Shown here piece by piece: positions 6,951-43,251 of a stretch of DNA of 64,000 nt. Location of the stretch: assembly GCA_903854195.1 (NCBI GenBank), contig CAINVO010000029.1, positions 2,557 to 66,556 of the forward strand, given 5' to 3'. The notes beneath the pieces are model-generated. The model searched no databases and was not told where the DNA came from. It saw only the letters and a list, made by a program, of their open reading frames with translations. Position 1 is the stretch's first letter. Each line of letters begins with the position of its first letter. The position numbers were made by a program, and so were the translations under genes. This DNA comes from an uncultured bacterium (GTDB lineage Bacteria > Patescibacteriota > Minisyncoccia > Phycocordibacterales > CAINVO01).

Positions 6951-6968
6951 TTATTAGTACTAATTGTA

Positions 6969-7801: not shown

Positions 7802-7807
7802 ATTTAT

Positions 7808-8212
7808 TTATTTTAATTGACCAACTGTACCAGTAATTGCAACTTGAATAACACTAGCTCCCAATATAATAGCTGCTCCGACAACAACCCATGTAAGAGT
7901 TTTGTGTGCTGTTTCAATTTTTTTCACATCCCCTCCCGATGTCACGTAAAGAAAACCTGCATAAATAATAAAGAACACTGTCACAAGTGCCCCAAGAACC
8001 TTAACGACACCTAGGAGCACATTTATAAAATCAGCAAGGGTGCTAGCTGTTTTTATTGGGTTATCCAACTTAGCTTGTGCATCAGCGTTTGAAGCAAAAG
8101 CCAATGTAGATAGAGCAACCATAATAAACCCTGCAGGTTGAACTAATTTCTTAAAAATTTGCTTAATTTTATTTTGTATTTTCATTATTTTAATTTTATC
8201 TTTATGAACCAA
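7808..8212 (-). CDS. Small secreted two-helix membrane protein, VirB2/TrbC-like pilin family (paralog 4, subfamily B)
   Basis: 134 aa; signal peptide (..AFASNADA), core YAGFLYVTSGGDVKK..AHK..; start may be the internal Met at 8185. Confidence 0.55.
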   Translation of the reverse strand: MVHKDKIKIMKIQNKIKQIFKKLVQPAGFIMVALSTLAFASNADAQAKLDNPIKTASTLADFINVLLGVVKVLGALVTVFFIIYAGFLYVTSGGDVKKIETAHKTLTWVVVGAAIILGASVIQVAITGTVGQLK

Positions 8213-8597
8213 GTAAACTATAACCAGGATTCACACCAAGCCCTGTCAAAATAAACTGAACAATTAACCACGCTAGTAAAGCAACAATAAGACCGACAAC
8301 AGCCTTAAACATGACACTATGGGCCTTTTTAACCTGCGTTTCACTTCCAGCTGCTGTAAGGTATAGGAAGCCTGCATAAACAAAAAGTAAAACAGCAGCG
8401 GTTATCGCAAGATAAAGTAAAAAACCCACAACAGTGTTGACCAAAATCATGAAATCACTCCAACCACAACCCTGAGCAGCACTAAAACATTGCAACTGCA
8501 ATGTTTTAGTCTGCGCACTAGCCAGTATTGGGAAAAATAAAAAAACAAATACAGAAAAAATTGATTGGATTTTAAATTTAATTATTTTCTGCATCAT
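8202..8597 (-). CDS. Small secreted two-helix membrane protein, VirB2/TrbC-like pilin family (paralog 5, subfamily B)
   Basis: 131 aa; signal peptide (..PILASA), core YAGFLYLTAAGSETQVKKAHS; similar to paralog 4. Confidence 0.55.
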   Translation of the reverse strand: MMQKIIKFKIQSIFSVFVFLFFPILASAQTKTLQLQCFSAAQGCGWSDFMILVNTVVGFLLYLAITAAVLLFVYAGFLYLTAAGSETQVKKAHSVMFKAVVGLIVALLAWLIVQFILTGLGVNPGYSLLGS

Positions 8598-8598
8598 C

Positions 8599-9943: not shown

Positions 9944-10483
9944 CTAAGGATGCTTTGGCACTGTGAACAGTAACCCGTAATGGTGATCTCCTGCATCAAA
10001 TTCTTTTTCAAAAAGAAACCCCGCTGATTTTGCAAGAGTAATTGTTTCTGATTTTGAAATCCTCTGATCCTTTTTAGGACCTATATTTACTTCAGACTCA
10101 TGTGACCAATCAATAATGGCTAATCTTCCTTTTGATCTCAATATTCTAAATGCTTCCCCAACAATTGTACTGCGCACCTCACTAAAAAATAATGTATTAA
10201 ATATAAAAACCCTATCAACAGAATGATCAGCAAGACCACTTCCTCTTTCTTGCTCCAAATCAGCGTGTAAAATATCTACATTATCTAGCCCCTGACGCTC
10301 TGCATCTTTTTTTATCTTATGAAGTAAGTCAATTTGAACATCTATAGCATAAACCTTTCCGTATTTACCAACTGCACGAGCTGCAGCAATTGCATGATGG
10401 CCTGAACCTGATCCAAAATCTGCAACAACCATTCCTTCACCGACATATGCCTGGGTAATATTTTTTTCAGGATGAGAAAACAT
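9944..10483 (-). CDS. Class I SAM-dependent methyltransferase
   Basis: 179 aa; motif I VADFGSGSGHH, acidic motif II, Rossmann MTase pattern. Confidence 0.7.
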   Translation of the reverse strand: MFSHPEKNITQAYVGEGMVVADFGSGSGHHAIAAARAVGKYGKVYAIDVQIDLLHKIKKDAERQGLDNVDILHADLEQERGSGLADHSVDRVFIFNTLFFSEVRSTIVGEAFRILRSKGRLAIIDWSHESEVNIGPKKDQRISKSETITLAKSAGFLFEKEFDAGDHHYGLLFTVPKHP

Positions 10484-14111: not shown

Positions 14112-14147
14112 AATGGCGACATTGTAGCACAATATTAAATGTGTATA

Positions 14148-14265
14148 AAGTATTACAAATACACCTTTTTGGAGCACGGATAAATCCTTGCTAGGATTTT
14201 CCTCGTGCTCGCTCCGTCGAGTCTCGCAAGTCTCCAAAAAGGTGCATTTGTAATATTTGTAATAC
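14148..14265. repeat. Nested inverted repeats in the MBL-hydrolase / rpsA divergent spacer
   Basis: Arms ttacaaatacacctttttggag and ctccaaaaaggtgcatttgtaa (1 mismatch) enclose inner hairpins gagcacg..cgtgctc and aaatcct-tgct-aggattt. Confidence 0.6.
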
Positions 14266-14390
14266 TTTACCAACCTTAGATGTTGTGCTACATTAGCCCT
14301 ATTATTAATAGTTGTAGCCACAAGTAACCTCGCCCATTGTTACGACAGATTTGCAGGCGAAACTTGTGGCTAGACGCATATACATTATTT

Positions 14391-15551
14391 ATGGCAAAAA
14401 AAATTGACGGTTCTGTAGACGAAAATCTAAAGGACATCGTAAAGGACAACCAAACAACGGCTCAAGAAGAGGCTGAAAAGGAGATACGTTCTAAAAAGGA
14501 TAGCCCGATGGGCAAGCTTCTAAACGAAACTGCAACACCTCCAAGTGTAGCTGATATCGTTGAAGGACCCGTTATCGCTATCGACAAGAAAGGTGTTTTT
14601 GTGGATTTACATCCATATGGAACAGGTATTATTTATGGACGTGAATACATCAACGCTCGTGACATCATCAAGAAAGTAAACATTGGTGACAGTATCGCAG
14701 CTAAAGTTGTTGGATTTGATCACCCAGAAGGATACATTGAACTTTCTCTAAAAGAAGCTAAACAGGCATTGATTTGGAGTGAGGCTGAAATTGCTATTCG
14801 AGACAAGACTGCTTTTGATATTCCTGTTCTTGAAGCAAACAAAGGAGGACTTATTCTTTCATGGCAAGGTATCCAAGGTTTCCTTCCTGCATCACAACTT
14901 AAGACAGAACACTACCCACGCGTAACAGATGGTGATAAGGATAAAATCCTGGAAGAGCTTAAGAAACTTATTGGCAAGCGCATTTCTGTAGTTATCATTT
15001 CTGCCGCTCCAAAAGAAGGAAAACTTATCTTCTCAGAAAAGAACCCTGAACAAAAAGATAAAGAAAAGATGGTTGGAAAATACGCAGTTGCAGATGAAAT
15101 CGAAGGAACAGTTACAGGCATGGTAGATTTCGGAGTATTCGTAAAACTAGAAGAAGGTCTTGAAGGTCTAGTTCACATCTCAGAAATCGACTGGGCACTT
15201 GTAGAAGATCCTCGAGCTATCTTTAAGGTTGGCGATAAAGTAAAAGTAAAAATTATCGAAATCAAGGATGGTAAGATTTCTCTTTCTATCAAGGCTTTGA
15301 AAGAAAACCCATGGAAAGCTGCATCAAAGAAATACAAGAAAGATGATGTTGTAAGTGGTGTTGTTATCAAATTCAACAAACACGGCGCTCTTGCAAGCAT
15401 TGAAGAAGGTGTCGCAGGTCTTGTACATGTTTCAGAGTTTGGAACAGAAGCAAAACTTCGTGAGTCACTAGAGCTTGGTAAAAGCTATAACTTTAAGATC
15501 AATCTCTTTGATCCAAAAGAACAAAAGATGGCGTTAGGTTTTGTGAAGTAG
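14391..15551 (+). CDS. rpsA: 30S ribosomal protein S1 (short, 4 S1 domains)
   Basis: Repeated S1-domain motifs (G.V.G.V....FG.FV.L..G..GL.H.SE); ATG at 14391 gives MAKKIDG. Confidence 0.9.
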   Translation: MAKKIDGSVDENLKDIVKDNQTTAQEEAEKEIRSKKDSPMGKLLNETATPPSVADIVEGPVIAIDKKGVFVDLHPYGTGIIYGREYINARDIIKKVNIGDSIAAKVVGFDHPEGYIELSLKEAKQALIWSEAEIAIRDKTAFDIPVLEANKGGLILSWQGIQGFLPASQLKTEHYPRVTDGDKDKILEELKKLIGKRISVVIISAAPKEGKLIFSEKNPEQKDKEKMVGKYAVADEIEGTVTGMVDFGVFVKLEEGLEGLVHISEIDWALVEDPRAIFKVGDKVKVKIIEIKDGKISLSIKALKENPWKAASKKYKKDDVVSGVVIKFNKHGALASIEEGVAGLVHVSEFGTEAKLRESLELGKSYNFKINLFDPKEQKMALGFVK

Positions 15552-15555
15552 TTAG

Positions 15556-15650
15556 ATAAAATAAAAAAGCCGTTTGCGAAGTCCTTCGCTACCCTGTTTT
15601 AAGTCTTGAGACTTCAGAATAGAGTGCGGGACAAGCGAACGGCTTTTTTA
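15556..15650 (+). terminator. Composite rho-independent terminator after rpsA
   Basis: aaaaaagccgtttgcg ... cgcaaacggcttttttatttt with an inner hairpin gaagtc..gacttc. Confidence 0.65.
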
Positions 15651-15693
15651 TTTTGCCTGCTATTCACGCCCAGCGTGGTTATTTTTAATGGTA

Positions 15694-23149: not shown

Positions 23150-23189
23150 TTTGATTTAATTAGAAATAAATAAATATAAAAACAAAAGG

Positions 23190-23228
23190 AAAGGCGCAGG
23201 TCCACGGAGTGGACCTGCGCCTTTTAAA
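23190..23228. terminator. GC-rich intrinsic terminator (bidirectional) between trxB and the convergent ORF
   Basis: GGCGCAGGTCCAC-gga-GTGGACCTGCGCC followed by ttttaaatt. Confidence 0.75.
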
Positions 23229-24077
23229 TTACCCAACAAACTGAGCTGGTATCACCATGCGCGCTCCCATTGAGCTATTCTTAAAAACACATGGGCGATG
23301 CTCAACCCGAAAATCACCATCAAATTCAATACTCTGACCTTTTTCTCGTGTAGATATTTGCCAAGCTGCCTGAAGCCTGTTATTTGATTTTGAACAATCA
23401 TTCGGAAAACAAGTAGTGGACTCTCCCCAATCAAGATGTTTTCTTTCTGAGAAATAAGCTGCTCCAAAAGCCAAAACATACCCACGAAAAGTGAGCCACG
23501 ACTTACTTCTTAACAAAAGTTCATCAATGTTCCTATTTTTGGTATTCGAATCAGAAAAAATCTCATTTTTAATGATGCTCAGCGACGGAAGACCTTGAGC
23601 CTCAAACCCATAAAATTGAGTTAGGTCGCATTTTAAAGCAGGGTTGAGATTTTGGCTTCGGAGTACTTTGTTTATTACATCAAAGTTATCCGTCATGGTA
23701 CCAGGATCGAAAACAACAAACACATTCTCCCAAGGTAATTCCTCAGGGAGAGTGAACATTTTATTTAAATCGACCTTAATACCAAGGATGCTCTCTGTGA
23801 AACGCTCAGCATCTGAAACTGCATTGATGAGATTAGTTTCTGACACTTTAAAACGGTTTAGTGAAAGTGCCACCGATAACTGATCAACTCCGAAATTCCC
23901 TTCAATCAGATCTTGTAGACAGAGTGAGAGCTTTTCCAAATCGAATGGATAGCCATTTATTTGACGAAGTTGCCGTTTTATCTCAAACAGCTTTCCATCA
24001 AGGTTACGATACGTTTCGCCTTCGACATTAGTTGCCATGACGTTATTTTCCTTTATTGTTTGTGTTTTTTCCGACAA
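23229..24077 (-). CDS. Hypothetical cytoplasmic protein, no recognisable family
   Basis: 282 aa, non-repetitive, no TM helix; likely start at the second Met (MATNVEG). Confidence 0.4.
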   Translation of the reverse strand: MSEKTQTIKENNVMATNVEGETYRNLDGKLFEIKRQLRQINGYPFDLEKLSLCLQDLIEGNFGVDQLSVALSLNRFKVSETNLINAVSDAERFTESILGIKVDLNKMFTLPEELPWENVFVVFDPGTMTDNFDVINKVLRSQNLNPALKCDLTQFYGFEAQGLPSLSIIKNEIFSDSNTKNRNIDELLLRSKSWLTFRGYVLAFGAAYFSERKHLDWGESTTCFPNDCSKSNNRLQAAWQISTREKGQSIEFDGDFRVEHRPCVFKNSSMGARMVIPAQFVG

Positions 24078-24156
24078 TTATTAATCGCCAGAACATGTTG
24101 ACAAGGGCTTTGTGTTTTTATAAAAAACACTCTGCTGACTTATTTATTTAACAGCT

Positions 24157-25509
24157 TTATATCACAAAAATAGTATAAAACAAACCAACAGCAGAAAGGC
24201 CCATCACAAAAAATGTAGTCCACACGAGCAGTCTAGAAAAAGTGCCACCTTTGTGATCACCTAATATCTCGGTATTACCATTTATTCTTGCAATCAAAAA
24301 AAGCAATGGTACTGCCGCAACACCGTTGAACACTGCAGTAAATATAAGAGCTTTAATTGGATCAATGCCAATAAAATTAATTAAAAGACCAATTAAAGTA
24401 GAGACGATAATAACACCATAAAAACCTTTAGCTTTACTGAATTTTCTGTAAAGTCCTTCTTTCCATCCAAAGGCTTCGGAAAGTGCATAAGCTGCAGAAC
24501 CCGCAAGCACTGGTATTCCTAGAAGTCCTAGCCCTATAACTCCCACTGCAAATAAATCCTTTGCAAGTTGACCGGCATTTGGAAAAGAACTTACCAGAGG
24601 TTCAAGAGCCTTAGCTGCATCAGCCGCGGTATTAATATTCACAACACCATTACTAAAAAGAACTGTTGCTGTAGTAATAATAATAAACCATTGCACCAAC
24701 TCAGAAACAATCATTCCAATAGAATTATCAATTTTTAAATTTCTTAAAAACTTTTTTGTCACATGTGGCTTTCCACCATTTTGACTCAAAAGATGACTTT
24801 TGATTTCTTCTTCAACTTCCTCTGAAGTCTCCCAGAAAAACATATACGGTGAAATTGTTGTACCGAAAACTCCAGTTACGATAAAAAGGAAAGCGAAAGT
24901 AAATTCTACATGTGGCACAAGTGTCGCGTGTAAAATCTGTCCCCAAGGTTCCTTAATAATAAGAGCTGTGACTGGATATGCGAGCATCGACAAAACTAAC
25001 CATTTTAATATTTTTACGTATTGTCTATAACTTACAAAAATTTCGAGAAAAATAATTGCCAGAGCAGTTAAAACTGCAAGAAGAGCAAATGGAACATCAA
25101 CTACAAGTTTTGTTGCACTCGCTACAGCACCAATATCTGCTCCTATATTTATAGTGTTTGCAATAACAACTAGAAGCACAACAACTGTCAAAATTTTCTT
25201 CGAATAATGTTCTTTAACAACTCCAGCCAAACCCTTACCAGTAACAGCACCAATACGCGCGCAGGCCTCCTGTACTGCTATTAGAAGGGGTAACTGATAC
25301 AAAGCAGTCCAAAGCATCCCAAACCCAAATTGAGCGCCTGTTTGAGAATATGTGGCAATTCCCGACGGGTCGTCATCTGCTGCACCGGTAATCACCCCAG
25401 GACCAAGTAATCGTAAAAAACGATAAAGTCTCGACTGCTTTTTTTTCGAATGATTTATATTAAAATTTTGATCGGGTATTTCCGATGTTCTTGTTGTTTC
25501 GCTACTCAT
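24157..25509 (-). CDS. mntH: Nramp-family divalent metal (Mn2+/Fe2+) transporter
   Basis: GPG..TGAADDDPSGIATYSQTGAQFG motif and 11 TM helices. ATG at 25509 preferred over the ORF-track TTG at 25557. Confidence 0.9.
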   Translation of the reverse strand: MSSETTRTSEIPDQNFNINHSKKKQSRLYRFLRLLGPGVITGAADDDPSGIATYSQTGAQFGFGMLWTALYQLPLLIAVQEACARIGAVTGKGLAGVVKEHYSKKILTVVVLLVVIANTINIGADIGAVASATKLVVDVPFALLAVLTALAIIFLEIFVSYRQYVKILKWLVLSMLAYPVTALIIKEPWGQILHATLVPHVEFTFAFLFIVTGVFGTTISPYMFFWETSEEVEEEIKSHLLSQNGGKPHVTKKFLRNLKIDNSIGMIVSELVQWFIIITTATVLFSNGVVNINTAADAAKALEPLVSSFPNAGQLAKDLFAVGVIGLGLLGIPVLAGSAAYALSEAFGWKEGLYRKFSKAKGFYGVIIVSTLIGLLINFIGIDPIKALIFTAVFNGVAAVPLLFLIARINGNTEILGDHKGGTFSRLLVWTTFFVMGLSAVGLFYTIFVI

Positions 25510-25557
25510 ACACAGTATTGTATCAAATTTTTTTATAAAATATCCAAAAATTTCCAA

Positions 25558-25660
25558 TAAAAAAAACCGGATCGAAGTGATCCGGCCACAGGTCTCATTG
25601 AGACCTATATAGTGGGGATGTCATTTTCCGTTCAAAAATGACATCCCCGTTTTCCTTTCT
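25558..25660 (-). promoter_or_regulatory. Structured leader upstream of mntH: three perfect hairpins, the last followed by a T7 run
   Basis: Minus-strand read: GGGGATGTCATTTT-tgaacg-AAAATGACATCCCC; GGTCTCAATGAGACC; CCGGATCacttcGATCCGG-TTTTTTT; about 50 nt before the ATG. Confidence 0.5.
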
Positions 25661-25900
25661 ATAATCTTTCGCAAGATGTTGTAGATTGAGCCTGAACGGT
25701 GCCCAACCCACAATATCTCACTATCCCTGTCGTCATTTATGTAAATTCCGAGAAACGAATTTTCATAGTTGCTGTATCTTTTGCTTATTAGGTTCCCGCA
25801 ACGTCGAAACCCAGCTCAACTCCGTTCATAGTTCTACGGAATAGTTGTATATTAGCACAAATGATTTTTATTGTCAATAGGTGCCAATAAATGGGACTTT

Positions 25901-26512
25901 CTACATTTTCTTAACATGAACAGCAAGGAATAGACAAGACGGTTTCCAGCCATCCTCGCCAGTTGAGATTTTGAGACGGTTTTTAAGACCGTCTACCTTC
26001 TCGAAGCATGGGTACCCTGGCAAAACATTATTCATCTTACTCAAGAGAGTATCCCAAAGCCATCTGCAAATAGCCTTAGATTCGTGTTGGAAGTGAATAA
26101 AGCCTTCATTCGAAGACCCGAGGGCAATCAGCGGATCATCCCTAATTATGTTTCCGAATTTCCCCGCAAACACCATTAGTTCCTTTATAAAGGCAGGCCG
26201 AAGACCAGCTTGAGCAAATTCCTTTATAATCTCATCCCTTTTCCACCCAAAGAACTGGGGTCCGAGAGCATCGAATTTTACAACTTCAAAATTGACCGTG
26301 TAAACACCCGTAAGGTAATTTTCAAAAGTCATTGAAGTTATTTCGCTTTCATTTTCGACTGAGCAGTTTGCCTCATCGAGCAAGATACCGAGAGTCTTTC
26401 TCGCGTCAATCTGAATATCCCTGAAATCATTTGTTCCGGGCCAAAACCAGTCTCGACGATTAATCCCCTCCTCGTTATCGCAAAATACAATTCTTGGATC
26501 TATTACTTTCAT
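25901..26512 (-). CDS. Hypothetical protein in a GC-elevated islet
   Basis: 203 aa, no TM helix, no recognisable motifs; local GC about 44% versus about 36% in the flanks. Confidence 0.4.
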   Translation of the reverse strand: MKVIDPRIVFCDNEEGINRRDWFWPGTNDFRDIQIDARKTLGILLDEANCSVENESEITSMTFENYLTGVYTVNFEVVKFDALGPQFFGWKRDEIIKEFAQAGLRPAFIKELMVFAGKFGNIIRDDPLIALGSSNEGFIHFQHESKAICRWLWDTLLSKMNNVLPGYPCFEKVDGLKNRLKISTGEDGWKPSCLFLAVHVKKM

Positions 26513-26643
26513 TTTTCTCCTTTCTATTTTTATTTATATTTTTTCAAATATTCATAAAATATTTATGTAGCCAAAATCTAGGCCAAGATTACATAAATGA
26601 CTTAATAAAGTCAAACAAATTTTAACTATCCTACTAGATAAAT

Positions 26644-27879
26644 TTATTTTGTAAAAATTAAACTTTCAAGACTTTTTTCAATATTTTTGGTCACAATATC
26701 GCTATAATTTTTAAAGAAATAATTACATGAAGCAGCTATAGGATCACCTGAATATACCCCACAACCATTTGAAGTGTGCACCAAATACCCAATAGTTATA
26801 TAGTTCCCCTTTTGGTGAGTTGTATAATAATAATTAGTATATAACTGACTCATCCCAGCATCAGAAGAAGACGATAAACAGAAGTTAACATTATTTAATG
26901 TGACACTTGAATTTTTTTCAGGCATCGGAGCATTAGGAGAAACGTAACAGCCATTTGTTCCAATACTTGTACTTGTTGAAGTTGTAAAAACTTCTGGGGT
27001 ACCACTTTGGCCATAGTTTAAGCTGGCCATATCACTATAAAACTTGTTGGGATATTGAAACGAAAAACCAACATTAGAATCAACGTAAGTTTTCCATAAT
27101 TCAGAAGATGCTTGTTTTGTTTGTGTAAATGAATTTAATTCCTGCTGTACGATTTTGTTTTGACCATCAAAACTGATAGGTGTAGCAACGGATGGATCTG
27201 TAGCCAAAATAGTATTTGTCAAAAAGTTAGCATCGAATACTCCAATATTATTTACCACCACAAAGTTATCAGCACTCAAAGGAACAATTTCACCACGCCC
27301 ATATGTACTATCTTGCCCAGATGAACCAAAAATATGAAGACCTCCCATTGTATTGACCGAAACATTAGCTGTAGTTGACGCAGACAATTTGCCATTTGAG
27401 TCATACCCTGAGGTCATCCAAGTATGAGTTTTTGAATTAAAAAAATATGTTTGATTAGGTGAGATACCAAAAGTATCGGTAATTATCATTGATGATGAAT
27501 GAACTTTCTGTATGTATATTTCTGGTTTTGTGTTTCCTTTTGTGTCTTTCTCACCAAGAACTAAAATTGACATGACCTTTCCTGTTTGAATATTCGAATC
27601 TGTATCAGTACTTGGAGAAATTTCTGAAACCTGCCAATCACTTGGATACCAGAAAGAAAATCCAAAATCTGCATCAGTATACTGCTTTGCACTTGAAGTT
27701 GATGCAATTGTTGATGTTTGATTCTGTTGATCTGTACTAGTACCACTTGCAACGTCCTGATTTGTGATTGGAATAGAGGAATTACTTATATTATAAAAAT
27801 ACACGATTCCAATAATTACAAACAACACTACAATAATACTTACTAGAATTCCGACAAAACCTTTTTGTGATTTTTTCAT
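26644..27879 (-). CDS. Prepilin-like (class III signal) surface protein with a large Ser/Thr-rich extracellular domain
   Basis: N-terminus MKKSQKGF + hydrophobic helix (type IV pilin-like leader, no Glu+5); 411 aa. Confidence 0.55.
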   Translation of the reverse strand: MKKSQKGFVGILVSIIVVLFVIIGIVYFYNISNSSIPITNQDVASGTSTDQQNQTSTIASTSSAKQYTDADFGFSFWYPSDWQVSEISPSTDTDSNIQTGKVMSILVLGEKDTKGNTKPEIYIQKVHSSSMIITDTFGISPNQTYFFNSKTHTWMTSGYDSNGKLSASTTANVSVNTMGGLHIFGSSGQDSTYGRGEIVPLSADNFVVVNNIGVFDANFLTNTILATDPSVATPISFDGQNKIVQQELNSFTQTKQASSELWKTYVDSNVGFSFQYPNKFYSDMASLNYGQSGTPEVFTTSTSTSIGTNGCYVSPNAPMPEKNSSVTLNNVNFCLSSSSDAGMSQLYTNYYYTTHQKGNYITIGYLVHTSNGCGVYSGDPIAASCNYFFKNYSDIVTKNIEKSLESLIFTK

Positions 27880-27897
27880 ATATGTTAAGATAATACC

Positions 27898-28230
27898 ATG
27901 TTTATTTTTACAATTATTCCTTACTGGGTATGGATAAGTCTTTCAGCTATCTTCTTTGGAATTGGGGAATTTCTATCTAAAAAATTTGCAATGAATCCTG
28001 GCTGGGCATTATTTTCAATTTTTATTCTAGTAGACATTCTAAGCGCTGTTGCCTGGCTCCCGGCAATTTTTGAAAAGAATCAATTATCAATTACTGGGGT
28101 CATTTGGTCTATTGTTTCTTTGATGGCTACAGTAGCTATTGGTGTACTTGCTTTCAATGAAGAACTGACACTGACGCAATGCATTGGCTTAGCAACAGGC
28201 CTTGTATCTGTAGTTCTACTCAGCAGATAG
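27898..28230 (+). CDS. Small 4-TM membrane protein (SMR/DMT-superfamily-like)
   Basis: 110 aa, four helices, conserved Glu in TM1 (GIGEFLSKK). Confidence 0.45.
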   Translation: MFIFTIIPYWVWISLSAIFFGIGEFLSKKFAMNPGWALFSIFILVDILSAVAWLPAIFEKNQLSITGVIWSIVSLMATVAIGVLAFNEELTLTQCIGLATGLVSVVLLSR

Positions 28231-28244
28231 TTATAGTAATTTTT

Positions 28245-29240
28245 TTATAATTGTATTTGACTAGCCAATACTACAAATGTGACCACGTTACTTGTTCCGT
28301 TCAGATTTCTGACTGCTATGGTATTAACACCAGGGCTTATTATTCTCATGTACATGGCACACATCATTCCTGGTTGGCAATCTGCACCAACAGAACCTGG
28401 AACAGAAAACGACAAACTAGTCCCATTATTTGAGGATGAAACATTATTTACTGGACCACCAGAGAAAAGTACTGTGTTTGTTTGTTGAAAACCTGATCCG
28501 TAAATAGTTACCTGACTACCAATTCCTCCTGATGTTGGAGATACTGAATTTATTGCTGGAACCTGACTATTTACACTACCGTTTACATTTATACTTGCAC
28601 TTGTTTGAGCGCTCTGACCATTACTTCCACGTACAGTGAATGTTGGTGTAAACACACCTACTGAATGATACGCATGAGTGAATGTTGATGTTTGGTTGTA
28701 TATTTGTTGAGCTGTTACTGAATATGCCCCCATCATATTGCTATAAACTTCATCACCCCAAACAACACCATAACTCAACCCTCCTCCAGTAACGTCTGTT
28801 GCATGAACTGTCCACGTACCGCTTTGATCAACGTTTAAAGTAGTAGGACTATCTAGACCATTAATAACTGGTTGGTTCTGATTATTTTGATTAACAACGC
28901 AACCTATACCAACAATCAAAGCTCTAGTTTGAGGACCTACATATCCGGCTGAATAAAGATTGTTTTCTCTCTGAAATCTTTGCACTGCAGACAAAGTCAT
29001 TGAACCAAAATATCCAGTAGGTCCAACAGATAAATACCCCTTTCCATTTAAATACGCCTGCAAACGGCTAACTTCACCGTTCGTGTAGCCATCTCGGCTA
29101 CCATAACGCATATTATAGTTTAGAGTAACGCAGCCATATGGCTGAACATTATCTGCAGACACCAAAGAAAAACCGCCAGAAATAAAGGAAACCGCCATCA
29201 AACCGAAACAAAAAACACCTGAGATTATATATCTTTTCAT
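28245..29240 (-). CDS. Secreted protein with peptidoglycan-binding domain (PG_binding_1) and C-terminal IPT/TIG domain
   Basis: Signal peptide; GEVSRLQAYLNGKGYL..GYFGSMTLSAVQRFQ (PGBD); VPAINSVSPTSGGIGSQVTIYGSGF (IPT/TIG). Confidence 0.65.
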   Translation of the reverse strand: MKRYIISGVFCFGLMAVSFISGGFSLVSADNVQPYGCVTLNYNMRYGSRDGYTNGEVSRLQAYLNGKGYLSVGPTGYFGSMTLSAVQRFQRENNLYSAGYVGPQTRALIVGIGCVVNQNNQNQPVINGLDSPTTLNVDQSGTWTVHATDVTGGGLSYGVVWGDEVYSNMMGAYSVTAQQIYNQTSTFTHAYHSVGVFTPTFTVRGSNGQSAQTSASINVNGSVNSQVPAINSVSPTSGGIGSQVTIYGSGFQQTNTVLFSGGPVNNVSSSNNGTSLSFSVPGSVGADCQPGMMCAMYMRIISPGVNTIAVRNLNGTSNVVTFVVLASQIQL

Positions 29241-29294
29241 ACACCTAGAGACGTACAGAAATGATCACTATTACAGCGGTATTTAATTTAAAAA

Positions 29295-30995
29295 TTATTT
29301 CTTCATAACCAAACGGACCAAACGAATATCCAAATATGTAAATTTTGAGCCAAGCTTATTTTTTACAGGTGCAAGAAAGAAAACTTTTGAAGAAAGATTC
29401 TTCAATTCTCTTAACGCAGATTCTATTTTTTGTCGCTTAACTGATGAAATATGAGATGCAAGATATTCAACATCAATAGATGGATCTTCCTCTATGAGTT
29501 TTTCAATATGACTGACAACAGTTTCTGGAGTTAAATCTCTTTTTTCAGCAATTCTAGTAAGCGGAGTTTTTGAAACAACATACTCCAAAGTAACATCGAG
29601 AGTTGAAAGTTTTTTAGCCTTTTCGACAACCCCAGTAATTTTATTTATTATTTTCTTTCCACCATTTGCACCAACGACGCCCCCATTTCTAATCAAGAAA
29701 TCTTCCTGTGTTCTGTGAATAGCTTCTATGGATGTTTCAGCCAAAGCATTTTTAGCAGATTCGGAAAGACTCCGGAGCTTTTGATCAAACTCCAAGACTT
29801 CTTCATTCACCTGTAGTGCCATTTGATTAAAACCAAGCAAAGACAAACCAGCAAGGGTACGCACACGTGAAAGAGCAACGTACCCCATCCCTTTTTCAAA
29901 AGATCTAGATAAATCAACCTCTACAGCATCCAAACTCATTCCCTGACTTTTGTGTACTGTGATCGCCCAAGCAAGTCTCAAAGGATACTGAATAATTTCT
30001 GCTTTTACATTTCCTTCATCTTCAATGCGCCAACTCGCTTTTGCAATTGAAAGAATTTTTCCTGTTGCTGTTCGTATCACCGGATCCTCATTTTGCTTAC
30101 ATGAGATCACTACTCCTGAAGTCCCGTTTACAAACCCTGCTTCATAATTATTTTTTACACACATAACCCTGGCGCCGACTTTTAATTGTAAAAGTGTGGG
30201 CGCCAGACACGTTTTTTTTATCAAATCAACATACTGCTGTTTTCCGCGACTAGCCATTTCATAAGTTGTCACATCCCCGCCTATTTTATCAAGAGACTCG
30301 GCATTCACTTTATCAACATCAATATTATGAGTATATAGTCGCGTCGGCTCAATATCCATTTCCACTTTTTTCTGATAACGCTCTTCTAGAAAAGAACCTA
30401 TGTCCGAATCTAAATCATTAGAACGAATAGCGTTAAGAACCGTCAAAAAATTATCATCAGTCTGTCTATACTGAGTAGTGAGATAGCATATTGCAAACTC
30501 GGAGTCTTCCCAAGCTTTTGATCTAAAAACAAAAAAAGCTTTTGGCTCCCCCATGCGGGAAACTGGCGGCAACTGAAAAAAATCACCGACAAGCACAACT
30601 TGTATTCCCCCAAAAGGTTTGGTAGAACGTCTAAAATTTTTCAATATCTTATCAATCAAATCCAATCGAAAATGGTGAAGCATAGACACTTCGTCAATTA
30701 TCAAAACTTTTACCCTTTCAAAACGTTTCCAAAGATACTGTCTACCCTCTAAATAGTCTATATCCTTTTCTGACAACGTATCGCGAATACCAAGCCCTGA
30801 CCATGAATGAATAGTCACTCCCCCCATATGAGTAGCGGCAATACCAGTAGATGCAGTAACGGCCACTTCAACGTCATTTTCATGTAAGTAGGAAATATAA
30901 CGATTTACCAAGTGTGTTTTACCTGATCCAGCGGATCCTGTAATAAAAACATTGATGCCTGTCTTTAAGATTTCGAATGCTTCGTCTTGATTCAT
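29295..30995 (-). CDS. PIF1/RecD-family ATP-dependent DNA helicase with C-terminal HTH-like region
   Basis: Walker A GSAGSGKTH, motif II LIIDEVSM, QLPPV motif, 566 aa. Confidence 0.8.
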   Translation of the reverse strand: MNQDEAFEILKTGINVFITGSAGSGKTHLVNRYISYLHENDVEVAVTASTGIAATHMGGVTIHSWSGLGIRDTLSEKDIDYLEGRQYLWKRFERVKVLIIDEVSMLHHFRLDLIDKILKNFRRSTKPFGGIQVVLVGDFFQLPPVSRMGEPKAFFVFRSKAWEDSEFAICYLTTQYRQTDDNFLTVLNAIRSNDLDSDIGSFLEERYQKKVEMDIEPTRLYTHNIDVDKVNAESLDKIGGDVTTYEMASRGKQQYVDLIKKTCLAPTLLQLKVGARVMCVKNNYEAGFVNGTSGVVISCKQNEDPVIRTATGKILSIAKASWRIEDEGNVKAEIIQYPLRLAWAITVHKSQGMSLDAVEVDLSRSFEKGMGYVALSRVRTLAGLSLLGFNQMALQVNEEVLEFDQKLRSLSESAKNALAETSIEAIHRTQEDFLIRNGGVVGANGGKKIINKITGVVEKAKKLSTLDVTLEYVVSKTPLTRIAEKRDLTPETVVSHIEKLIEEDPSIDVEYLASHISSVKRQKIESALRELKNLSSKVFFLAPVKNKLGSKFTYLDIRLVRLVMKK

Positions 30996-31118
30996 TGGGA
31001 GTGATTATACTACATACCCCAATGAAATAAATATGATCAATATATGGTATTAACGCTTAGGTGGATAACCGAGGTATAATTGTGTCTGTTACTATATTTA
31101 ATAATTAAAATAAAAAAC

Positions 31119-31427
31119 ATGTCAAAAAAAATTATAATATCGATAATAATTGCGCTATTGGTAATAGTTGGTGCTGTCTGGTATTTTAGTCAGCCTGCAA
31201 ATCCTTTAACACCAGATACTTCGGATCTATCAGCCTCAAGTTCTCAACAAATAGATCAAAATAGTGACACCAGTTCAACCACCCCCACAAACGAAACATC
31301 AGTTTCAAACACAAGCAACACAGACGTTTCAATTAATCAGGATTTAAATGGAGTTGATACACAACTCAATGCACTAGGTACTGATAATGCAACAACAGAC
31401 AAAGGTCTAAACAACCCAAATCAATAA
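31119..31427 (+). CDS. Small membrane-anchored Ser/Thr/Asn-rich protein
   Basis: MSKKIIISIIIALLVIVGAVWYF anchor followed by a low-complexity tail. Confidence 0.4.
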   Translation: MSKKIIISIIIALLVIVGAVWYFSQPANPLTPDTSDLSASSSQQIDQNSDTSSTTPTNETSVSNTSNTDVSINQDLNGVDTQLNALGTDNATTDKGLNNPNQ

Positions 31428-31452
31428 ACAATAATTTTAAAAAATAAAATAT

Positions 31453-32268
31453 ATGAATACTAAAAAAATTACCACAGCCCTTATTACCATTGCTACTAGT
31501 GCATCTTTACTAGCTGGTGTAGCAATTGTACCAACTACCTATGCTGATTCTACAAGTACAGCCAACACAGCAGGTCTAAAATCAGGCGCAAACGCCGCTG
31601 CCCGACTAGCAAAAATAATTGCAAGAAGTGATACAGCAATCACCGCACGGATTGCAGACCTAAACAAACTAAACACAAGAGTTCAGGGATTAAAAAATGT
31701 ATCTTCAACCGAAAAAACAAATATCTCCAATGATGTCCAGACTAACATCTCGGGGCTTACATCATTAAAAGCAAAAATTGATGCAGACACTGATGCAACA
31801 GCAGCACTTAATGACGAAAAAACAATAACAGGTAGTTTCAGAATTTACGCATTGGTAGTTCCTCAAGGTTCCATTTTGGCATCAGTAGATAGAGTAAATA
31901 CAATAGTTGACCTAATGACACCTATTGGATCAAAGATTCAATCACGGATCACAGCTGACCAAACTGCAGGAAAAGATGTATCAGCTCTACAAACACTACT
32001 ATCAGATTTTAATTCAAAAATAGCTGACGCAAAAATCCAAGCAGTAGCAGCTCAATCTGGTGTTGTATCCCTAGTTCCAGACCAGGGCAACAAAACAACA
32101 CTTGCTTCAAACACAGCAGCTCTAAAGGCAGCAAGAGCAAACATCAAGACAGCCACAAATGATTTACAAACTGCACGACAAGATGCAAAAAAAATCACAC
32201 AAAGCTTAAAGACTATGGACAAACAGTCTTCAACAAGCTCATCCGCTTCATCTACAGTTAGCCAGTAG
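31453..32268 (+). CDS. Secreted coiled-coil / alanine-rich protein, unknown function
   Basis: Signal peptide (..TTYADS), heptad-like Ala/Thr/Lys-rich repeats, 271 aa; followed by a terminator. Confidence 0.45.
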   Translation: MNTKKITTALITIATSASLLAGVAIVPTTYADSTSTANTAGLKSGANAAARLAKIIARSDTAITARIADLNKLNTRVQGLKNVSSTEKTNISNDVQTNISGLTSLKAKIDADTDATAALNDEKTITGSFRIYALVVPQGSILASVDRVNTIVDLMTPIGSKIQSRITADQTAGKDVSALQTLLSDFNSKIADAKIQAVAAQSGVVSLVPDQGNKTTLASNTAALKAARANIKTATNDLQTARQDAKKITQSLKTMDKQSSTSSSASSTVSQ

Positions 32269-32299
32269 GTTTGTAGTATTTCAAAAAAATTATTTAATT

Positions 32300-32331
32300 T
32301 AAAAAAACACCCCTTGCGGGGTGTTTTTTTA
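32300..32331. terminator. Intrinsic terminator (bidirectional)
   Basis: aaaaaaa-CACCCCttgcGGGGTG-ttttttt. Confidence 0.75.
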
Positions 32332-32347
32332 ATATATAAATACAAAT

Positions 32348-32656
32348 TTATTTTACATTTGAAACTTCCTTAACATTCTCAATTTCAGAATTGTCTGTAC
32401 ACCTAAGTGGATTACTTCCTGGCGCAGGAACACTAATAGTATACAAATATCCAGTATTACATCTGTACAAATAGCAATGCGACGGAACTGTTGCAGAACA
32501 AAAAACTTCTTCTGTCTTTTTCCCTGAGACAGCTTGCTGAATTGACGTTTGGTCGCTTGTCGACATGTATCCTATTTTCTCGTTTGACTTAAAGTAAAAG
32601 AAACCTGCAGAAACCAAAACAACCACAATCGCACCGATAGCAATATTTTTTTTCAT
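32348..32656 (-). CDS. Small secreted Cys-containing protein
   Basis: 102 aa, signal anchor, 6 Cys in the C-terminal half. Confidence 0.4.
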   Translation of the reverse strand: MKKNIAIGAIVVVLVSAGFFYFKSNEKIGYMSTSDQTSIQQAVSGKKTEEVFCSATVPSHCYLYRCNTGYLYTISVPAPGSNPLRCTDNSEIENVKEVSNVK

Positions 32657-32764
32657 TTGCTAATTGTACCAAAGTTTTAAATACAAAAACTGTTTATAAG
32701 GTTGAATAGTGCAAACATTATCACAACAAGGCCAGCTGTCTTAAAAAATACTACAGATTTTAAA

Positions 32765-33343
32765 CTATTGTTTAATCATAAAATCCAACTTATTACTAAT
32801 CACACTCCAAGGTTTAACATAAACCTTATATAGACCTGGTCTCATACCCACATATGATGAACAAGGTAACCCTGACTCACCCAAAGATTTCGTACACAAC
32901 TGATTGGGTAAGGTTATCGTAAGGGTTGTGGCACCAGCTGGAACATAACTGTTAGTTTCAATCACCCCAGATTGCCCTGTTTCATTTTCAAACCAAATGG
33001 CTGTTCCACCTTCAAATCCATTAAGGTAAATACCTTTAATTGTAAGAACTGTTCCTTGGTGGTCAGTCTGCTTAGGATTTATGGAATATATTTTTGGAAT
33101 TTTTGTTCCATCATTTACGAAAGAGTCTTTGGTGCTGGTAGCTATTGGGGCGACTTCACTTGAAGTACCAATCGACACACTCGTATCACTCTGAGCATTG
33201 TTTAATGAGTTAACATCCTGAGTATTTTTAATCTCAGGTTTTTTGTTATTTTGTAAATAAAGATACAAAATGAAACTGGCAATTAGAACTACAATTACAG
33301 TAATTAAAAATGGAACAATAAATCCTCTTTGTGATTTTTTCAT
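32765..33343 (-). CDS. Prepilin-like (class III signal) protein with IPT/TIG-like beta-sandwich domain
   Basis: N-terminus MKKSQRGFIVPFLITVIVVLI; C-terminal GTVLTIKGIYLNGFEGGTAIWFEN. Confidence 0.5.
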   Translation of the reverse strand: MKKSQRGFIVPFLITVIVVLIASFILYLYLQNNKKPEIKNTQDVNSLNNAQSDTSVSIGTSSEVAPIATSTKDSFVNDGTKIPKIYSINPKQTDHQGTVLTIKGIYLNGFEGGTAIWFENETGQSGVIETNSYVPAGATTLTITLPNQLCTKSLGESGLPCSSYVGMRPGLYKVYVKPWSVISNKLDFMIKQ

Positions 33344-33503
33344 ATTCTTTTAATTATATAATAAATTTATCAAACCTAAAGTAAAAATAATATATTGAGA
33401 CACCTCAACTGGTGGACTACTCGGTTTCAGTACTAAGGTAGTGAGACACTATATGGGGTTTTTAGTGCAATTTCAGGGCCTTGCTCAAGGTTCTCGGGTC
33501 GGA

Positions 33504-34097
33504 CTATAATTTTCGGAAAATGAAGTTCAGATAATTCTTTGAGCGTGGTTTAAAAGTTTCGAAATACACAAGTTCAAAACCATGATTTTTACATAAGCCT
33601 ACAACTTCATCTTTCTGATAGAAACTAAACCAGCGAGGCATATCAATCCCTGAACTTTCTTTATATTCTTCGGTGTCACCCTCAATGAGGCCAAGAGCAA
33701 AGATCCCAGAATAGTTGAGAACGCGAGAAATTTCCTTGAGAGAAATAGTAAAAGATTTCTTAGGAATATGGAGAAGTGCTGTATATGACCATACACCATC
33801 AAATGACTCGTTTTCAAATGGCAGGCTATCAAACCCTGCAAGGATAGATTTGAGACCTCTTTCGGAAGAGAGTTTCACCATCGCTTCCGAGGCATCTACA
33901 CAAAAGACTTCCTTTCCAGATTGTTGAAGCAATAATCCGTCTCTACCTGGACCACTCCCAGCATCGATTATTTTCTTACCAGACAATTCGATGAATTTAT
34001 CTAAGAACGCACGAGGAAAACGCTCCCAGAAATCGATGGTTTCGTCGTCATACTCCTTCGCCATTTTGTTGTACGTGTCGATTGTTTGTTGATCCAT
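33504..34097 (-). CDS. Class I SAM-dependent methyltransferase
   Basis: Motif I IIDAGSGPGRDG, 197 aa. Confidence 0.7.
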   Translation of the reverse strand: MDQQTIDTYNKMAKEYDDETIDFWERFPRAFLDKFIELSGKKIIDAGSGPGRDGLLLQQSGKEVFCVDASEAMVKLSSERGLKSILAGFDSLPFENESFDGVWSYTALLHIPKKSFTISLKEISRVLNYSGIFALGLIEGDTEEYKESSGIDMPRWFSFYQKDEVVGLCKNHGFELVYFETFKPRSKNYLNFIFRKL

Positions 34098-34186
34098 GAT
34101 TGATGATTTTAACTTATATTTTCGGATTCAGGTAATTGAGCCGCTATACTTAGCAAGTCTTCGGTCATACCGATATTAAGTTTTAT

Positions 34187-34276
34187 TGGCGGAGGAGGTG
34201 GGATTTGAACCCACGAGAAGCTTTCGCCCCTGCCGATGTTCGAGATCGGTGCTTTCAACCACTCAGCCACTCCTCC
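34187..34276 (-). tRNA. tRNA-Ser (CGA), type II, CCA encoded
   Basis: Reverse complement folds: acceptor GGAGGAG/CTCCTCC, anticodon loop CTCGAAC, long variable arm, T-loop TTCAAAT. Confidence 0.8.
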
Positions 34277-34377
34277 ATAATCTAATTAGCCTCATGAATA
34301 TAGCAGTTTTTTGCCTTTTTTACAAAAAATGTTATAGTACTTGAGTTATTTTTGGACAGTCAGATATTTAATTTTAT

Positions 34378-34449
34378 GGCCCTATCGTCTATCGGTTAGG
34401 ACATCGCCTTTTCAAGGCGAGAAGCAGAGTTCGACTCTCTGTAGGGTCA
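34378..34449 (+). tRNA. tRNA-Glu (TTC)
   Basis: Acceptor GGCCCTA/TAGGGTC, anticodon loop TTTTCAA, T-loop TTCGACT. Confidence 0.8.
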
Positions 34450-34493
34450 CAAATTTTAGCCAAATACAGTAATAGGAGTATACTTATCTGTAT

Positions 34494-36467: not shown

Positions 36468-38624
36468 TTATTTCATCAATAACGCATTTACAAAACTTCT
36501 TGTAGCTTTGAAAAAATTACCAGTTCCATGTATTAGATTAGAAGGTTTCAAAATTTCAACAGCATTAGCTTCTTGAAATTTGATAAGTGCATTTCTGGTA
36601 GCTTGGCCAAATATGTTTGTTTCATAACCCAACGATCCTGCACCTTTTTTTGAAACAAGGAATCCTTTATTATTTAAAAATTTCTGAAGACGCATTACGT
36701 CTAAATCTTTTAATCCTAACTTCAAATCCTTCAAGAAAAGAGCAATTTGACCATGTTTGAGAATATTGTCCTGGGTTGATGTCGCAACCAATCTGCCACC
36801 ACCAATTGGTCCAATTCTTGGACCTACGGACACAACCGGAAGATTTATTGAAACCACCGGCGCCACAAAATCCGGATAATTGTCTGAGTGACCATACCAA
36901 ACTGGAGATGAAAAATCCCATAACGGTTCAGAATTTAATGTTGTGGTAAAAATATCTTTAGTCTTATCATAAAACCATGTTTGGTCTCCATCTATATATC
37001 CGTCCCCTCCTCCAGATAAAATATTATATGTTACATTTGTACTCGTACCCATATTATCTACATTTCCAATTGCAAATGTTGGACCACTTGGAGAAACAAA
37101 CCAACCTAAATTTGACATAGAATCCAAATAACTTATTTGACCATCAAGTTCACCTATCAATCCTCCAACATTCGATGTTAACCCAACAACTAAACCTGTA
37201 GAGAAAGAATTACTAATAGGATCATTGTTTACCCTGCCAATGAGACCTCCGACATAGTCCTCTCCAGTAACGTTTCCTGTAGCATATGAATTCACGACAG
37301 ATGTTGGGAAAGGATAACCTCCTGCTGAACTTTCTCCAACAAGGCCTCCGACATTGTTGGTACCATGAATATTTGCTGTAGAGTATGTATTTTCAATGTG
37401 ACCCTTGTCGTTAAAGCCCACGAGACCTCCTGTGTAACTTCCTCCGGTAATGTTTCCTTTTGTAAAAACTTTCACCACCTGACCATGGACATTATATCCA
37501 ACTACCCCACCAACAGAGTTGCTACCAGTAATATTTTCATTCAATAAACCAAAATTTTTAATAACTGCACCATTAGTTTGAGAAAATAAACCGGCAAAAA
37601 ATTCAGACGAATTTTCAAATAAGTTTGAAATTACATGACCTTGACCATTAAATGTGCCGGAAAAATAAGGTGAGACTGAACCAATTGGTGTAAATCCCGC
37701 ACCATTGTTGAATAAATTAGAATTAAAATTTGGATTTAGAGAATCAGAAATATTTGTAGCAGAGCAATCAACATCATCAGTGAGTATGAAATTTTTGTTT
37801 AAAAAAATACCACTTGCTGCTGCTATGTTTTGAAGTTGTATACAGCTGTTTATTTGAAATGGACTTCCTACACTTCCGTCACCACCTGCAAAAAATGGTT
37901 CCATTGTTGTAAAGGTTTGATTTGAACTAGTAGCAAAATGACCATTTCCATCATCCATAATCACCCTAAAATTATAAGTTGTGCTAGGAGTAAGGCCATT
38001 AATATCTACAGACCATCCAGGATTTGCATTTATATTTTGACCATAACTTTCTGTTTTTCCATACTGAACAACTGCATTAATCAATGCAGGATCTGCATTC
38101 CAAACAATATTTGCAATTGTGTCTAAAGTGTTTGTGCCCCATGCATCAATACTACCGGCTGGACTTATATTTATTATGATTGGATCAATACTAACTACTG
38201 AGTCTGAGTCATTATTTATATAGTTAAAATTATAACTGCCAGAATATTTGGCATTAGCAACATTATGCAAAGTTACAGTAATAGCAGATCCTACAGGAAT
38301 ATCAGAATCAATATAAATATAGGCATCACTACCACTATAAAATGGTGCCGCGAGATTTTTCAAAACCCCATCAACAGATACAGTTGCCGTTGCATTGCTT
38401 AAATCAAAAGATCCATCAAAACTAAAATGTGCAACCACCCCGGTTGCAGGAATGTCTGTTTCGTTTGTAAAGTTGAAAGTATAGTCAGTGTTGGTATTCG
38501 CCACATAAGAATTAGCTGAATAGGAAAAATTACTAAGTGTGCCAGCGTAAACGTAATTTACCCCTGCAAAGAACAAAACCACTAAATAAAAAATACAACA
38601 AAAAAAACCGATACTTCTTTCCAT
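36468..38624 (-). CDS. Large secreted surface protein: FN3-like domain, GLUG-type repeats, C-terminal peptidoglycan-binding domain
   Basis: Signal peptide; repeats NVGGLVGES / YVGGLIGRV / NVGGLIGEL / SVGGVVGYN / YTGGLVGFN; C-terminal DLDVMRLQKFLNNKGFL..GYETNIFGQATRNALIKFQ (PG_binding_1); 718 aa. Confidence 0.6.
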   Translation of the reverse strand: MERSIGFFCCIFYLVVLFFAGVNYVYAGTLSNFSYSANSYVANTNTDYTFNFTNETDIPATGVVAHFSFDGSFDLSNATATVSVDGVLKNLAAPFYSGSDAYIYIDSDIPVGSAITVTLHNVANAKYSGSYNFNYINNDSDSVVSIDPIIINISPAGSIDAWGTNTLDTIANIVWNADPALINAVVQYGKTESYGQNINANPGWSVDINGLTPSTTYNFRVIMDDGNGHFATSSNQTFTTMEPFFAGGDGSVGSPFQINSCIQLQNIAAASGIFLNKNFILTDDVDCSATNISDSLNPNFNSNLFNNGAGFTPIGSVSPYFSGTFNGQGHVISNLFENSSEFFAGLFSQTNGAVIKNFGLLNENITGSNSVGGVVGYNVHGQVVKVFTKGNITGGSYTGGLVGFNDKGHIENTYSTANIHGTNNVGGLVGESSAGGYPFPTSVVNSYATGNVTGEDYVGGLIGRVNNDPISNSFSTGLVVGLTSNVGGLIGELDGQISYLDSMSNLGWFVSPSGPTFAIGNVDNMGTSTNVTYNILSGGGDGYIDGDQTWFYDKTKDIFTTTLNSEPLWDFSSPVWYGHSDNYPDFVAPVVSINLPVVSVGPRIGPIGGGRLVATSTQDNILKHGQIALFLKDLKLGLKDLDVMRLQKFLNNKGFLVSKKGAGSLGYETNIFGQATRNALIKFQEANAVEILKPSNLIHGTGNFFKATRSFVNALLMK

Positions 38625-43021: not shown

Positions 43022-43125
43022 CAAGTTGCATGTGTAATAATTTTTTTGTGTGAGTGGCAGTCATCACATGCCTAGTCGACGAGGGTATTTTCGTCACACC
43101 TACCTGCACATTGAGGTAGCATATA

Positions 43126-43190: not shown

Positions 43191-43214
43191 AGAAATTTGC
43201 ATAAATATAAATAC

Positions 43215-43243: not shown

Positions 43244-43251
43244 AGCCTGCA

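Follow-up and report, generated by a model that had tools for sequence, protein, structure and literature searches.

What are three stable hairpins, the last of them followed directly by a run of uridines, doing just in front of a metal-transporter gene: do they control that gene, or do they close the unit that precedes it? We took up this question in a 64,000-nucleotide (nt) stretch of contig CAINVO010000029.1 (assembly GCA_903854195.1) from an uncultured bacterium, the whole of which we call the window, where a preliminary description had proposed a metal-responsive attenuator or operator upstream of a gene that it named mntH. Our analysis of the sequence points to a different answer, which we hold to be reasonably likely: the hairpins would be the 3′-terminal terminator module of the unit upstream of the transporter gene, that unit being probably an orphan small RNA (sRNA) or a structured 3′ untranslated region (UTR), and the transporter gene would be expressed from a promoter of its own.

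Three minus-strand hairpins and a T-run do precede the transporter gene as first described (25648–25559). They lie within a 390-nt gap between two minus-strand genes, an orphan open reading frame (ORF) upstream and the transporter gene downstream. All hairpin coordinates are read on the minus strand, and stems are given in RNA letters:

25614–25648, minus strand: hairpin 1 (HP1), arms GGGGAUGUCAUUUU and AAAAUGACAUCCCC, 14 perfect pairs plus an inner U·G pair, loop UGAACGG, −22.7 kcal/mol
25587–25609, minus strand: hairpin 2 (HP2), core GGUCUC-AAU-GAGACC at 25605–25591, −12.0 kcal/mol
25565–25587, minus strand: hairpin 3 (HP3), GC-rich terminator stem GGCCGGAUC-ACUUC-GAUCCGGUU, −13.4 kcal/mol
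25559–25566, minus strand: U8 tract directly 3′ of HP3, completing an intrinsic terminator

HP3 and the U8 tract together have the make-up of an intrinsic (Rho-independent) terminator. The stem core CCGGAUC-ACUUC-GAUCCGG is extended by two outer G·U pairs to 8–9 pairs, 5 of them G–C, around a 5-nt loop; the U-run follows at once, and the whole sits downstream of a co-directional unit, the stem ending at 25565, 336 nt past the stop codon of the orphan ORF. Between the U-run and the ATG at 25509 there are 49 nt, in keeping with the roughly 50 nt estimated before. HP1 has no U-run after it on the minus strand, its T-rich tail following on the plus strand instead. Its 14-bp perfect stem is as reported, but the reported 6-nt spacer (tgaacg) is really the 7-nt UGAACGG, and what had been called a 34-nt perfect palindrome is a 35-nt inverted repeat with a non-palindromic spacer. 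HP2 grows from a 6-pair core to 10 pairs through two U·G pairs, an extension available on the minus strand only. The G·U pairs of HP2, of HP3 and of the hairpins further upstream form on this strand alone and argue for selection at the RNA level.

The stability of the module stands out within the window. A 166-nt stretch at this site folds at −57.7 kcal/mol (z = −6.5), with none of 200 shuffled sequences equally stable, and the 100 nt from 25551 to 25650 (minus strand) reach −50.2 kcal/mol against a mean of −16.1 (standard deviation 5.9) for all 100-nt segments on both strands of the 64 kilobases (kb). This is the second most stable 100-nt locus in the window, the first being a tRNA with its terminator. 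Single long perfect hairpins of 14–22 bp follow most genes here, this being the usual form of terminator in the window. When the full RNA described below is folded as an ensemble, HP1 and HP2 are paired with a probability of at least 0.97 and HP3 with 0.83–1.0, its outermost G·U pair having 0.15. The GC-elevated islet that the hairpins were thought to open is weak by comparison: their GC content of 0.427 against a window mean of 0.372 (standard deviation 0.06) is equalled or exceeded by 20% of 103-nt segments.

If the module ends an upstream unit, the transporter gene needs a start of its own, and a predicted promoter lies in the short interval that remains:

25517–25546, minus strand: predicted transporter-gene promoter, with a −35-like TGGATA (25546–25541), an 18-nt spacer and an extended −10 TGaTACAAT (25525–25517)
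24157–25509, minus strand: Nramp-family transporter gene, 450 aa, NRMT-like rather than canonical MntH, its mRNA probably leaderless

The extended −10 falls between the T-run and the ATG and ends 7 nt before the latter, a spacing that would yield a leaderless mRNA and hence leave no 5′ leader for an attenuator to act in; the gene has no Shine–Dalgarno (SD) sequence. Judged by these signals, the transporter mRNA is probably leaderless and transcribed from this promoter.

Such an arrangement would be far from exceptional in this organism, a member of the Paceibacteria within the candidate phyla radiation (CPR) whose nearest relative, with an FtsZ 88% identical, is a ‘Candidatus Pacebacteria’ metagenome-assembled genome (MAG). 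Across 46 genes of the window, −10-like hexamers are enriched in the interval 5–11 nt ahead of the start codon, with 11 where 4.4 per bin would be expected (Poisson P = 0.006); this interval also holds six of the eight perfect TATAAT hexamers in the window, and the motif TGnTAnnnT ends 6–10 nt before the ATG in five genes, valS included. Genes with a −10-like element 5–11 nt before the start are found, for example, at 9944–10483 (minus), 26644–27879 (minus), 27898–28230 (plus), 29295–30995 (minus), 36468–38624 (minus) and 43252–45519 (plus). Clear GGAG SD sites precede other genes in the window, and many genes lack an SD. Among 30 CPR homologues of the transporter gene, 8 likewise have a (TGn)TATAAT-like element 5–11 nt before the predicted ATG. 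This piling up of −10 elements near start codons suggests that leaderless mRNAs are common here, in line with the reported finding that an anti-SD motif is still detectable in only 48% of Parcubacteria (PMC9297842).

The same layout recurs at valS, where three hairpins and a U7 tract follow tsaD (43075–43254, plus strand), the valS ATG comes 60 nt further on, and the predicted leaderless start lies 8 nt past TGGTAGAAT; the terminator of tRNA-Phe, similarly, stands 70 nt before the next gene. The order of hairpins, terminator, promoter and ATG is not special to the transporter gene.

The identity of that gene also bears on what might regulate it, and the label mntH now looks doubtful. Against the MntH model NCBIfam NF001923 the protein scores 107.7 bits, far below the cut-off of 430, and its best solved relative is EleNRMT (7qia, E = 3.7e-57), MntH structures giving about 1e-14. 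NRMTs carry DxxG–TxxA/T where classical NRAMPs have DPGN–A/CxxM, and they transport Mg2+ and Mn2+ (PMC8806188). In the protein encoded here, helix 1 reads DPSG, which fits DxxG, while helix 6 reads GTTISPY, without a methionine, its T-T-I-S being TxxS rather than TxxA/T. By sequence it is probably an NRMT-like Mg2+/Mn2+ type with an imperfect match to the signature. Its best relatives, at 72–78% identity, come from Saccharibacteria, Paceibacterota and other MAGs.

Which unit, then, would the terminator close? Upstream of HP1 the minus strand holds a second set of features:

25901–26512, minus strand: orphan 203-aa ORF with a strong SD, AAAGGAG, upstream of the hairpins
25872–25877, minus strand: −35 hexamer TTGACA, part of a candidate promoter for an intergenic RNA
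25849–25857, minus strand: extended −10 TGcTAATAT, at 17-nt spacing from the −35, with a predicted start at about 25842
25559–25842, minus strand: candidate non-coding transcript of about 284 nt with predicted ends, an orphan sRNA and/or structured 3′ UTR of the orphan ORF
25819–25842, minus strand: 5′ hairpin AUUCCGU-AGAACUAUGA-ACGGAGU, holding one UGAACGG(A) copy
25671–25721, minus strand: P5, a long imperfect, G·U-rich hairpin with a 9-nt loop, ACCGUUCAG, that contains CCGUUCA at 25699–25693
25649–25670, minus strand: purine-rich linker GAAAGAUUAUAGAAAGGAAAAC, read from the sequence as single-stranded, with an SD-like AAAGGA 8 nt before an AUG inside HP1

The combination TTGACA-17-TGcTAATAT is the second-best sigma-70-type match on the two strands of the window (128 kb), begins 25 nt past the stop codon of the orphan ORF and sits exactly at the onset of the structured region. 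Extended −10 elements of the TGnTAnnnT type also stand upstream of most tRNA genes in the window (about 6 of 10), as in TGGTAATAT before tRNA-Gly. For the region of about 284 nt the folding energy is −102.2 kcal/mol (z = −6.9) when the minus strand is read and −76.7 kcal/mol (z = −4.3) when the plus strand is read; its upstream 186 nt alone have z = −3.2. The stretch contains no plausible ORF. In silico, it thus combines a promoter of its own, a terminator of its own (HP3 with U8) and no coding capacity, as a small-RNA gene would. No terminator was found between the ORF stop (25901) and either the RNA promoter or HP3, so that the mRNA of the orphan ORF should also end at HP3. The fallback idea of the preliminary description, that the hairpins terminate an upstream unit, is thereby the one that the sequence favours.

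A further feature ties HP1 to the sequence upstream of it. Its loop UGAACGG is the exact complement of the CCGUUCA in the 9-nt loop of P5, a 7-nt duplex of −8.7 kcal/mol, and a 7-nt loop match was reached in 26 of 5,000 random-loop trials. UGAACGG occurs twice in the RNA (HP1 loop, 25628–25634; 5′ hairpin, 25822–25828) and its complement once (P5 loop, 25693–25699), so that three of the five copies of UGAACGG/CCGUUCA in the window lie inside the RNA (P about 2e-4 after correction for some 280 possible 7-mers). The pattern suggests an intramolecular kissing contact or a shared, possibly protein-binding, motif, and the complementarity of the two loops suggests that HP1 is part of the fold of the RNA and not a redundant terminator. 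In ColE1, RNA I and RNA II likewise make 7-nt loop contacts. The present case resembles such kissing-loop RNAs in that two loops are perfectly complementary over 7 nt, and differs in that both belong to one RNA and the predicted contact is intramolecular.

Put together, the sequence of events at the locus may be as follows. The RNA would most likely be made from its own strong promoter, TTGACA-17-TGcTAATAT, and run from 25842 to 25559 on the minus strand; transcripts of the orphan ORF would probably run into the same region, so that the RNA doubles as their 3′ UTR. HP3 and U8 would terminate this unit, with HP1 and HP2 as stable stem-loops of the same RNA of about 284 nt and the HP1 and P5 loops joined by a 7-bp kissing contact. 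The terminator would shield the transporter promoter from upstream transcription, and the NRMT-like gene would then be transcribed, leaderless, from the extended −10 that ends 7 nt before its ATG.

A known class of transcripts offers a parallel. DapZ and MicL of the enterobacteria are 3′-UTR-type sRNAs, which have an internal promoter and share the terminator of the mRNA. The candidate RNA is like them in its promoter near the stop codon of the upstream gene, its length of a few hundred nt and the terminator shared with that gene. It is unlike them in being known from sequence alone, in lacking conservation and in its Paceibacteria host; we know of no characterised sRNAs in this group, although no literature search was aimed at them.

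Several points weigh against the account just given. The two start points and the 3′ end are predicted. No homologue of the RNA was detected in the genome, metagenome and viral collections searched, and we infer its independence from the mRNA of the orphan ORF. The loop complementarity was spotted only after the fact. The module also departs from ordinary intrinsic terminators, which it otherwise matches in the HP3 stem, the 5-nt loop, the U8 tract and the position at the end of a co-directional unit: two extra perfect hairpins, HP1 with 15 pairs and HP2 with 10, precede HP3 without U-runs of their own and are unneeded for termination. Finally, some transcription may read through into the transporter gene, and since many genes in the window have no SD, a read-through transcript could still be translated.

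The closest alternative would keep the terminator and drop the independent RNA. Here the hairpins would do no more than terminate the orphan 203-aa gene and form its structured 3′ UTR, with the promoter match at 25877–25849 unused, and they would still end the upstream unit. The uninterrupted stretch from the ORF stop (25901) to HP3, free of any other terminator, suits this version, as does the comparably long structured 3′ region with three hairpins after tsaD; so does the lack of conservation of the RNA anywhere searched. The promoter is what speaks for a separate sRNA: it ranks second in the window, has the extended −10 type of the tRNA genes and is placed exactly where the structured region begins. 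We therefore consider an mRNA tail alone possible but unlikely.

Quite improbable, in our estimate, is the reading with which the locus was introduced, that of a cis-regulatory leader such as a new metal riboswitch or attenuator. In this scheme the transcript would begin at about 25842, and read-through at HP3 into the transporter gene would respond to Mg2+, Mn2+ or another signal sensed by the 5′ domain. The order of promoter, structured RNA, terminator and gene is the classic layout for such a device, and the 3′ arm of the terminator has a 9-nt complement, with four G·U pairs, near the 5′ end of the RNA. NRMT genes first drew attention in Clostridium, where they lie downstream of M-box riboswitches. 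Their products, moreover, have been proposed as Mg2+ transporters (PMC8806188).

Family searches gave this leader no backing. We scanned Rfam over the whole window at the gathering threshold, over 3 kb at E ≤ 1 and over 401 nt at E ≤ 10 with the laxest filters, and no family matched on either strand even in the last of these, whether the M-box (RF00380), yybP-ykoY (RF00080), which the preliminary description had singled out among metal riboswitches, or any other. What came back were sub-threshold hairpin look-alikes: SurA at 21.7 bits where the gathering score is 100, Yfr19, rli60, and PrrB/RsmZ at 10 bits. The locus is like the M-box (ykoK) type in having an NRMT-like gene downstream and a structured region of about 180 nt that leads into a terminator; it differs in the missing covariance match, in the missing antiterminator and in the promoter between terminator and gene. 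The yybP-ykoY type would suit the name mntH, but neither does the locus match its covariance model nor is the gene a canonical MntH.

Folding provides no switch either, a check for a mutually exclusive antiterminator having yielded no credible one. Until the 3′ arm of HP3 has been transcribed, the 5′ arm has a single alternative, a weak contact 230 nt away of 4 kcal/mol, and forcing it costs 6.5 kcal/mol. The sequence adjoining the terminator, the usual place for an antiterminator, is locked in HP1 and HP2, so that two highly probable stems stand between the putative sensor and the terminator. Predicted promoters flank the terminator on both sides, the stronger one upstream and the extended −10 at leaderless spacing downstream, and the latter, with the absence of an SD from the transporter gene, speaks against control from a 5′ leader; both 5′ ends are predicted.

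Nor is the leader found in relatives. Neither blastn nor nhmmer detected an RNA homologue at 80 transporter-homologue genome loci, the median gap upstream of homologues is short (about 56 nt over 69 loci), and the two closest homologues, with proteins 75–78% identical, overlap or adjoin their upstream gene on contigs without the leader. No riboswitch, the M-box included, was found at 16 homologue loci, two of them from Clostridium, and a covariance model of the element from P5 through HP3 retrieved only itself in 506 kb. Scans of metagenome and viral collections with DNA patterns for the RNA returned nothing, or unrelated coding matches. Three outcomes named beforehand as refuting a leader are thus all seen in silico: a start site past the T-run (here a predicted promoter), a leader unconserved in relatives and no antiterminator. 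The attenuator or riboswitch proposal accordingly finds neither an Rfam family nor a switching structure to rest on. If the RNA did control the transporter gene, it would be a new class of metal-responsive leader, a conclusion from which the evidence points away; we know of no metal-responsive leader class in the Paceibacteria phylum. A more elaborate version, which we rate slightly lower again, would make the RNA of about 284 nt an undescribed Paceibacteria regulatory RNA whose kissing contact and multi-stem 5′ domain, answering to Mg2+/Mn2+ or to translation status, might tune read-through into the NRMT-type gene.

Control through translation is a remote prospect. Ribosomes on chained mini-ORFs would melt the terminator and so allow read-through, and the minus strand does offer MSFLNGK, MTSPLYRSQ and a 21-codon ORF, chained by two AUGA stop/start overlaps through HP1, HP2 and HP3 (25533–25644), with the SD-like AAAGGA placed 8 nt ahead of the first AUG (25644) and the third ORF crossing HP3. 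That AUG, however, is sequestered within the 15 pairs of the HP1 stem (−22.7 kcal/mol). The AUG and UGA of the mini-ORFs follow automatically from the palindrome AUGUCAU/AUGACAU; a chain of this kind arises by chance about once in 100 and was noticed after the fact; it shows no conservation, and the transporter gene has a predicted promoter of its own. The chain is probably a by-product of the palindromes.

Least probable of all is that HP1 acts as DNA, an operator at the transporter promoter for a dimeric metal-dependent repressor of the MntR/DtxR/Fur type: HP1 is a 14-bp perfect inverted repeat with a 7-bp spacer, and the three occurrences of TGAACGG/CCGTTCA in a span of 200 bp might also represent protein-binding sites, but the centre of the repeat (25631) lies about 120 bp upstream of the predicted start at 25509–25510 and overlaps neither the −35 nor the −10, the window holds no further copy of the repeat (7 matches at up to 3 mismatches against 8.4 expected), neither the annotated ORFs nor a tblastn search of these 64 kb of genome revealed a homologue of MntR, DtxR or Fur, and the neighbouring hairpins with their G·U pairs indicate selection on RNA. 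Half-sites of 14 bp are also far longer than the known boxes of metal repressors.

As found, then, the locus is ordinary gene punctuation, an intrinsic terminator that carries two accessory stem-loops and stands before the promoter of the next gene, and in that capacity it matters little. Its by-products may be of wider use. They include, from a CPR (Paceibacteria) genome, a candidate orphan sRNA whose promoter, terminator and loop–loop complementarity are unusually clear; in-silico signs of many leaderless mRNAs from extended −10 promoters, which change how apparent 5′ leaders in such genomes are to be read; and the probable reassignment of an ‘mntH’ gene as an NRMT-type Mg2+/Mn2+ transporter.

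The surroundings of the locus are specific to its lineage. Synteny with the nearest relative begins at about 16.2 kb in the window, continues as far as the end of trxB (23149) and resumes, inverted, at a tRNA-Ser/tRNA-Glu pair (34187–34450); the 11-kb segment between (23150–34186), with the hairpin locus in it, is missing at the syntenic position in that relative and hence appears lineage-specific. It encodes a 282-aa ORF, the NRMT-like gene, the RNA, the orphan ORF, a PsbP-like protein, a peptidoglycan-binding protein, a Pif1/Dda-like helicase and a methyltransferase. Its GC content is the same as that of the flanks, and the suggestion that the hairpins mark an islet border finds no compositional support, although they do fall within this segment. 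A link of the neighbours to defence systems or phages was considered and set aside, PADLOC and PHROGs returning only the Pif1/Dda-like helicase and the methyltransferase, several kb off.

The orphan ORF lives up to its name. It has no Pfam, NCBIfam, PADLOC or PHROG match and no relatives among 5.8 billion protein clusters, leaving it the sole member of its family. Exact look-ups that started from it returned only an identical 1,053-nt contig, and the only other copy of the locus is identical; identical contigs stem from the ENA assemblies ERZ27229609 and ERZ18630316. A single-sequence AlphaFold model of the protein has a predicted local distance difference test (pLDDT) score of 35 and is unusable.

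Other ideas about the RNA were tried and rejected. A GGUUUCGACG string brought a transfer-messenger RNA (tmRNA) to mind, of which ARAGORN found none. A scan for sRNA–target duplexes against all start regions was not meaningful, the transporter gene ranking 36th of 47. For a CsrA sponge, 8 GGA motifs stand against about 5 expected, and neither a CsrA nor an Hfq homologue was found in the window. A repeat or miniature inverted-repeat transposable element (MITE) was dropped in the absence of a second copy in the window.

HP1 also carries signals on the opposite strand. With its T-rich tail it scores as a terminator-like site on the plus strand, and a promoter-like ATGACA-16-TATAAT (11 of 12 matches) at 25638–25665 (plus strand) lies partly within it, directed antisense into the 5′ domain of the RNA.

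Elsewhere in the window, the stretch of about 2.1 kb past tRNA-Leu (6440–8598) contains no ORF of 150 aa or more. The one promoter match that ranks above that of the intergenic RNA is ATGACA-17-TGnTATAAT at 60093 (minus strand), right at the ATG of a hydrophobic ORF of about 75 aa (59855–60093, minus strand), which falls below the ORF list of at least 150 aa and likely encodes a small membrane protein from a leaderless mRNA; the region lacks structure (z = 0.08). Two further sites form very stable composite long hairpins, at 14140–14270 (minus strand, z = −8.9) and 15550–15680 (plus strand, z = −9.0). The first overlaps the 5′ extension of an ORF with a GTG start, whose start is probably mis-called, and the second, which has A- and T-runs at its edges and lies between convergent genes, probably terminates transcription in both directions.

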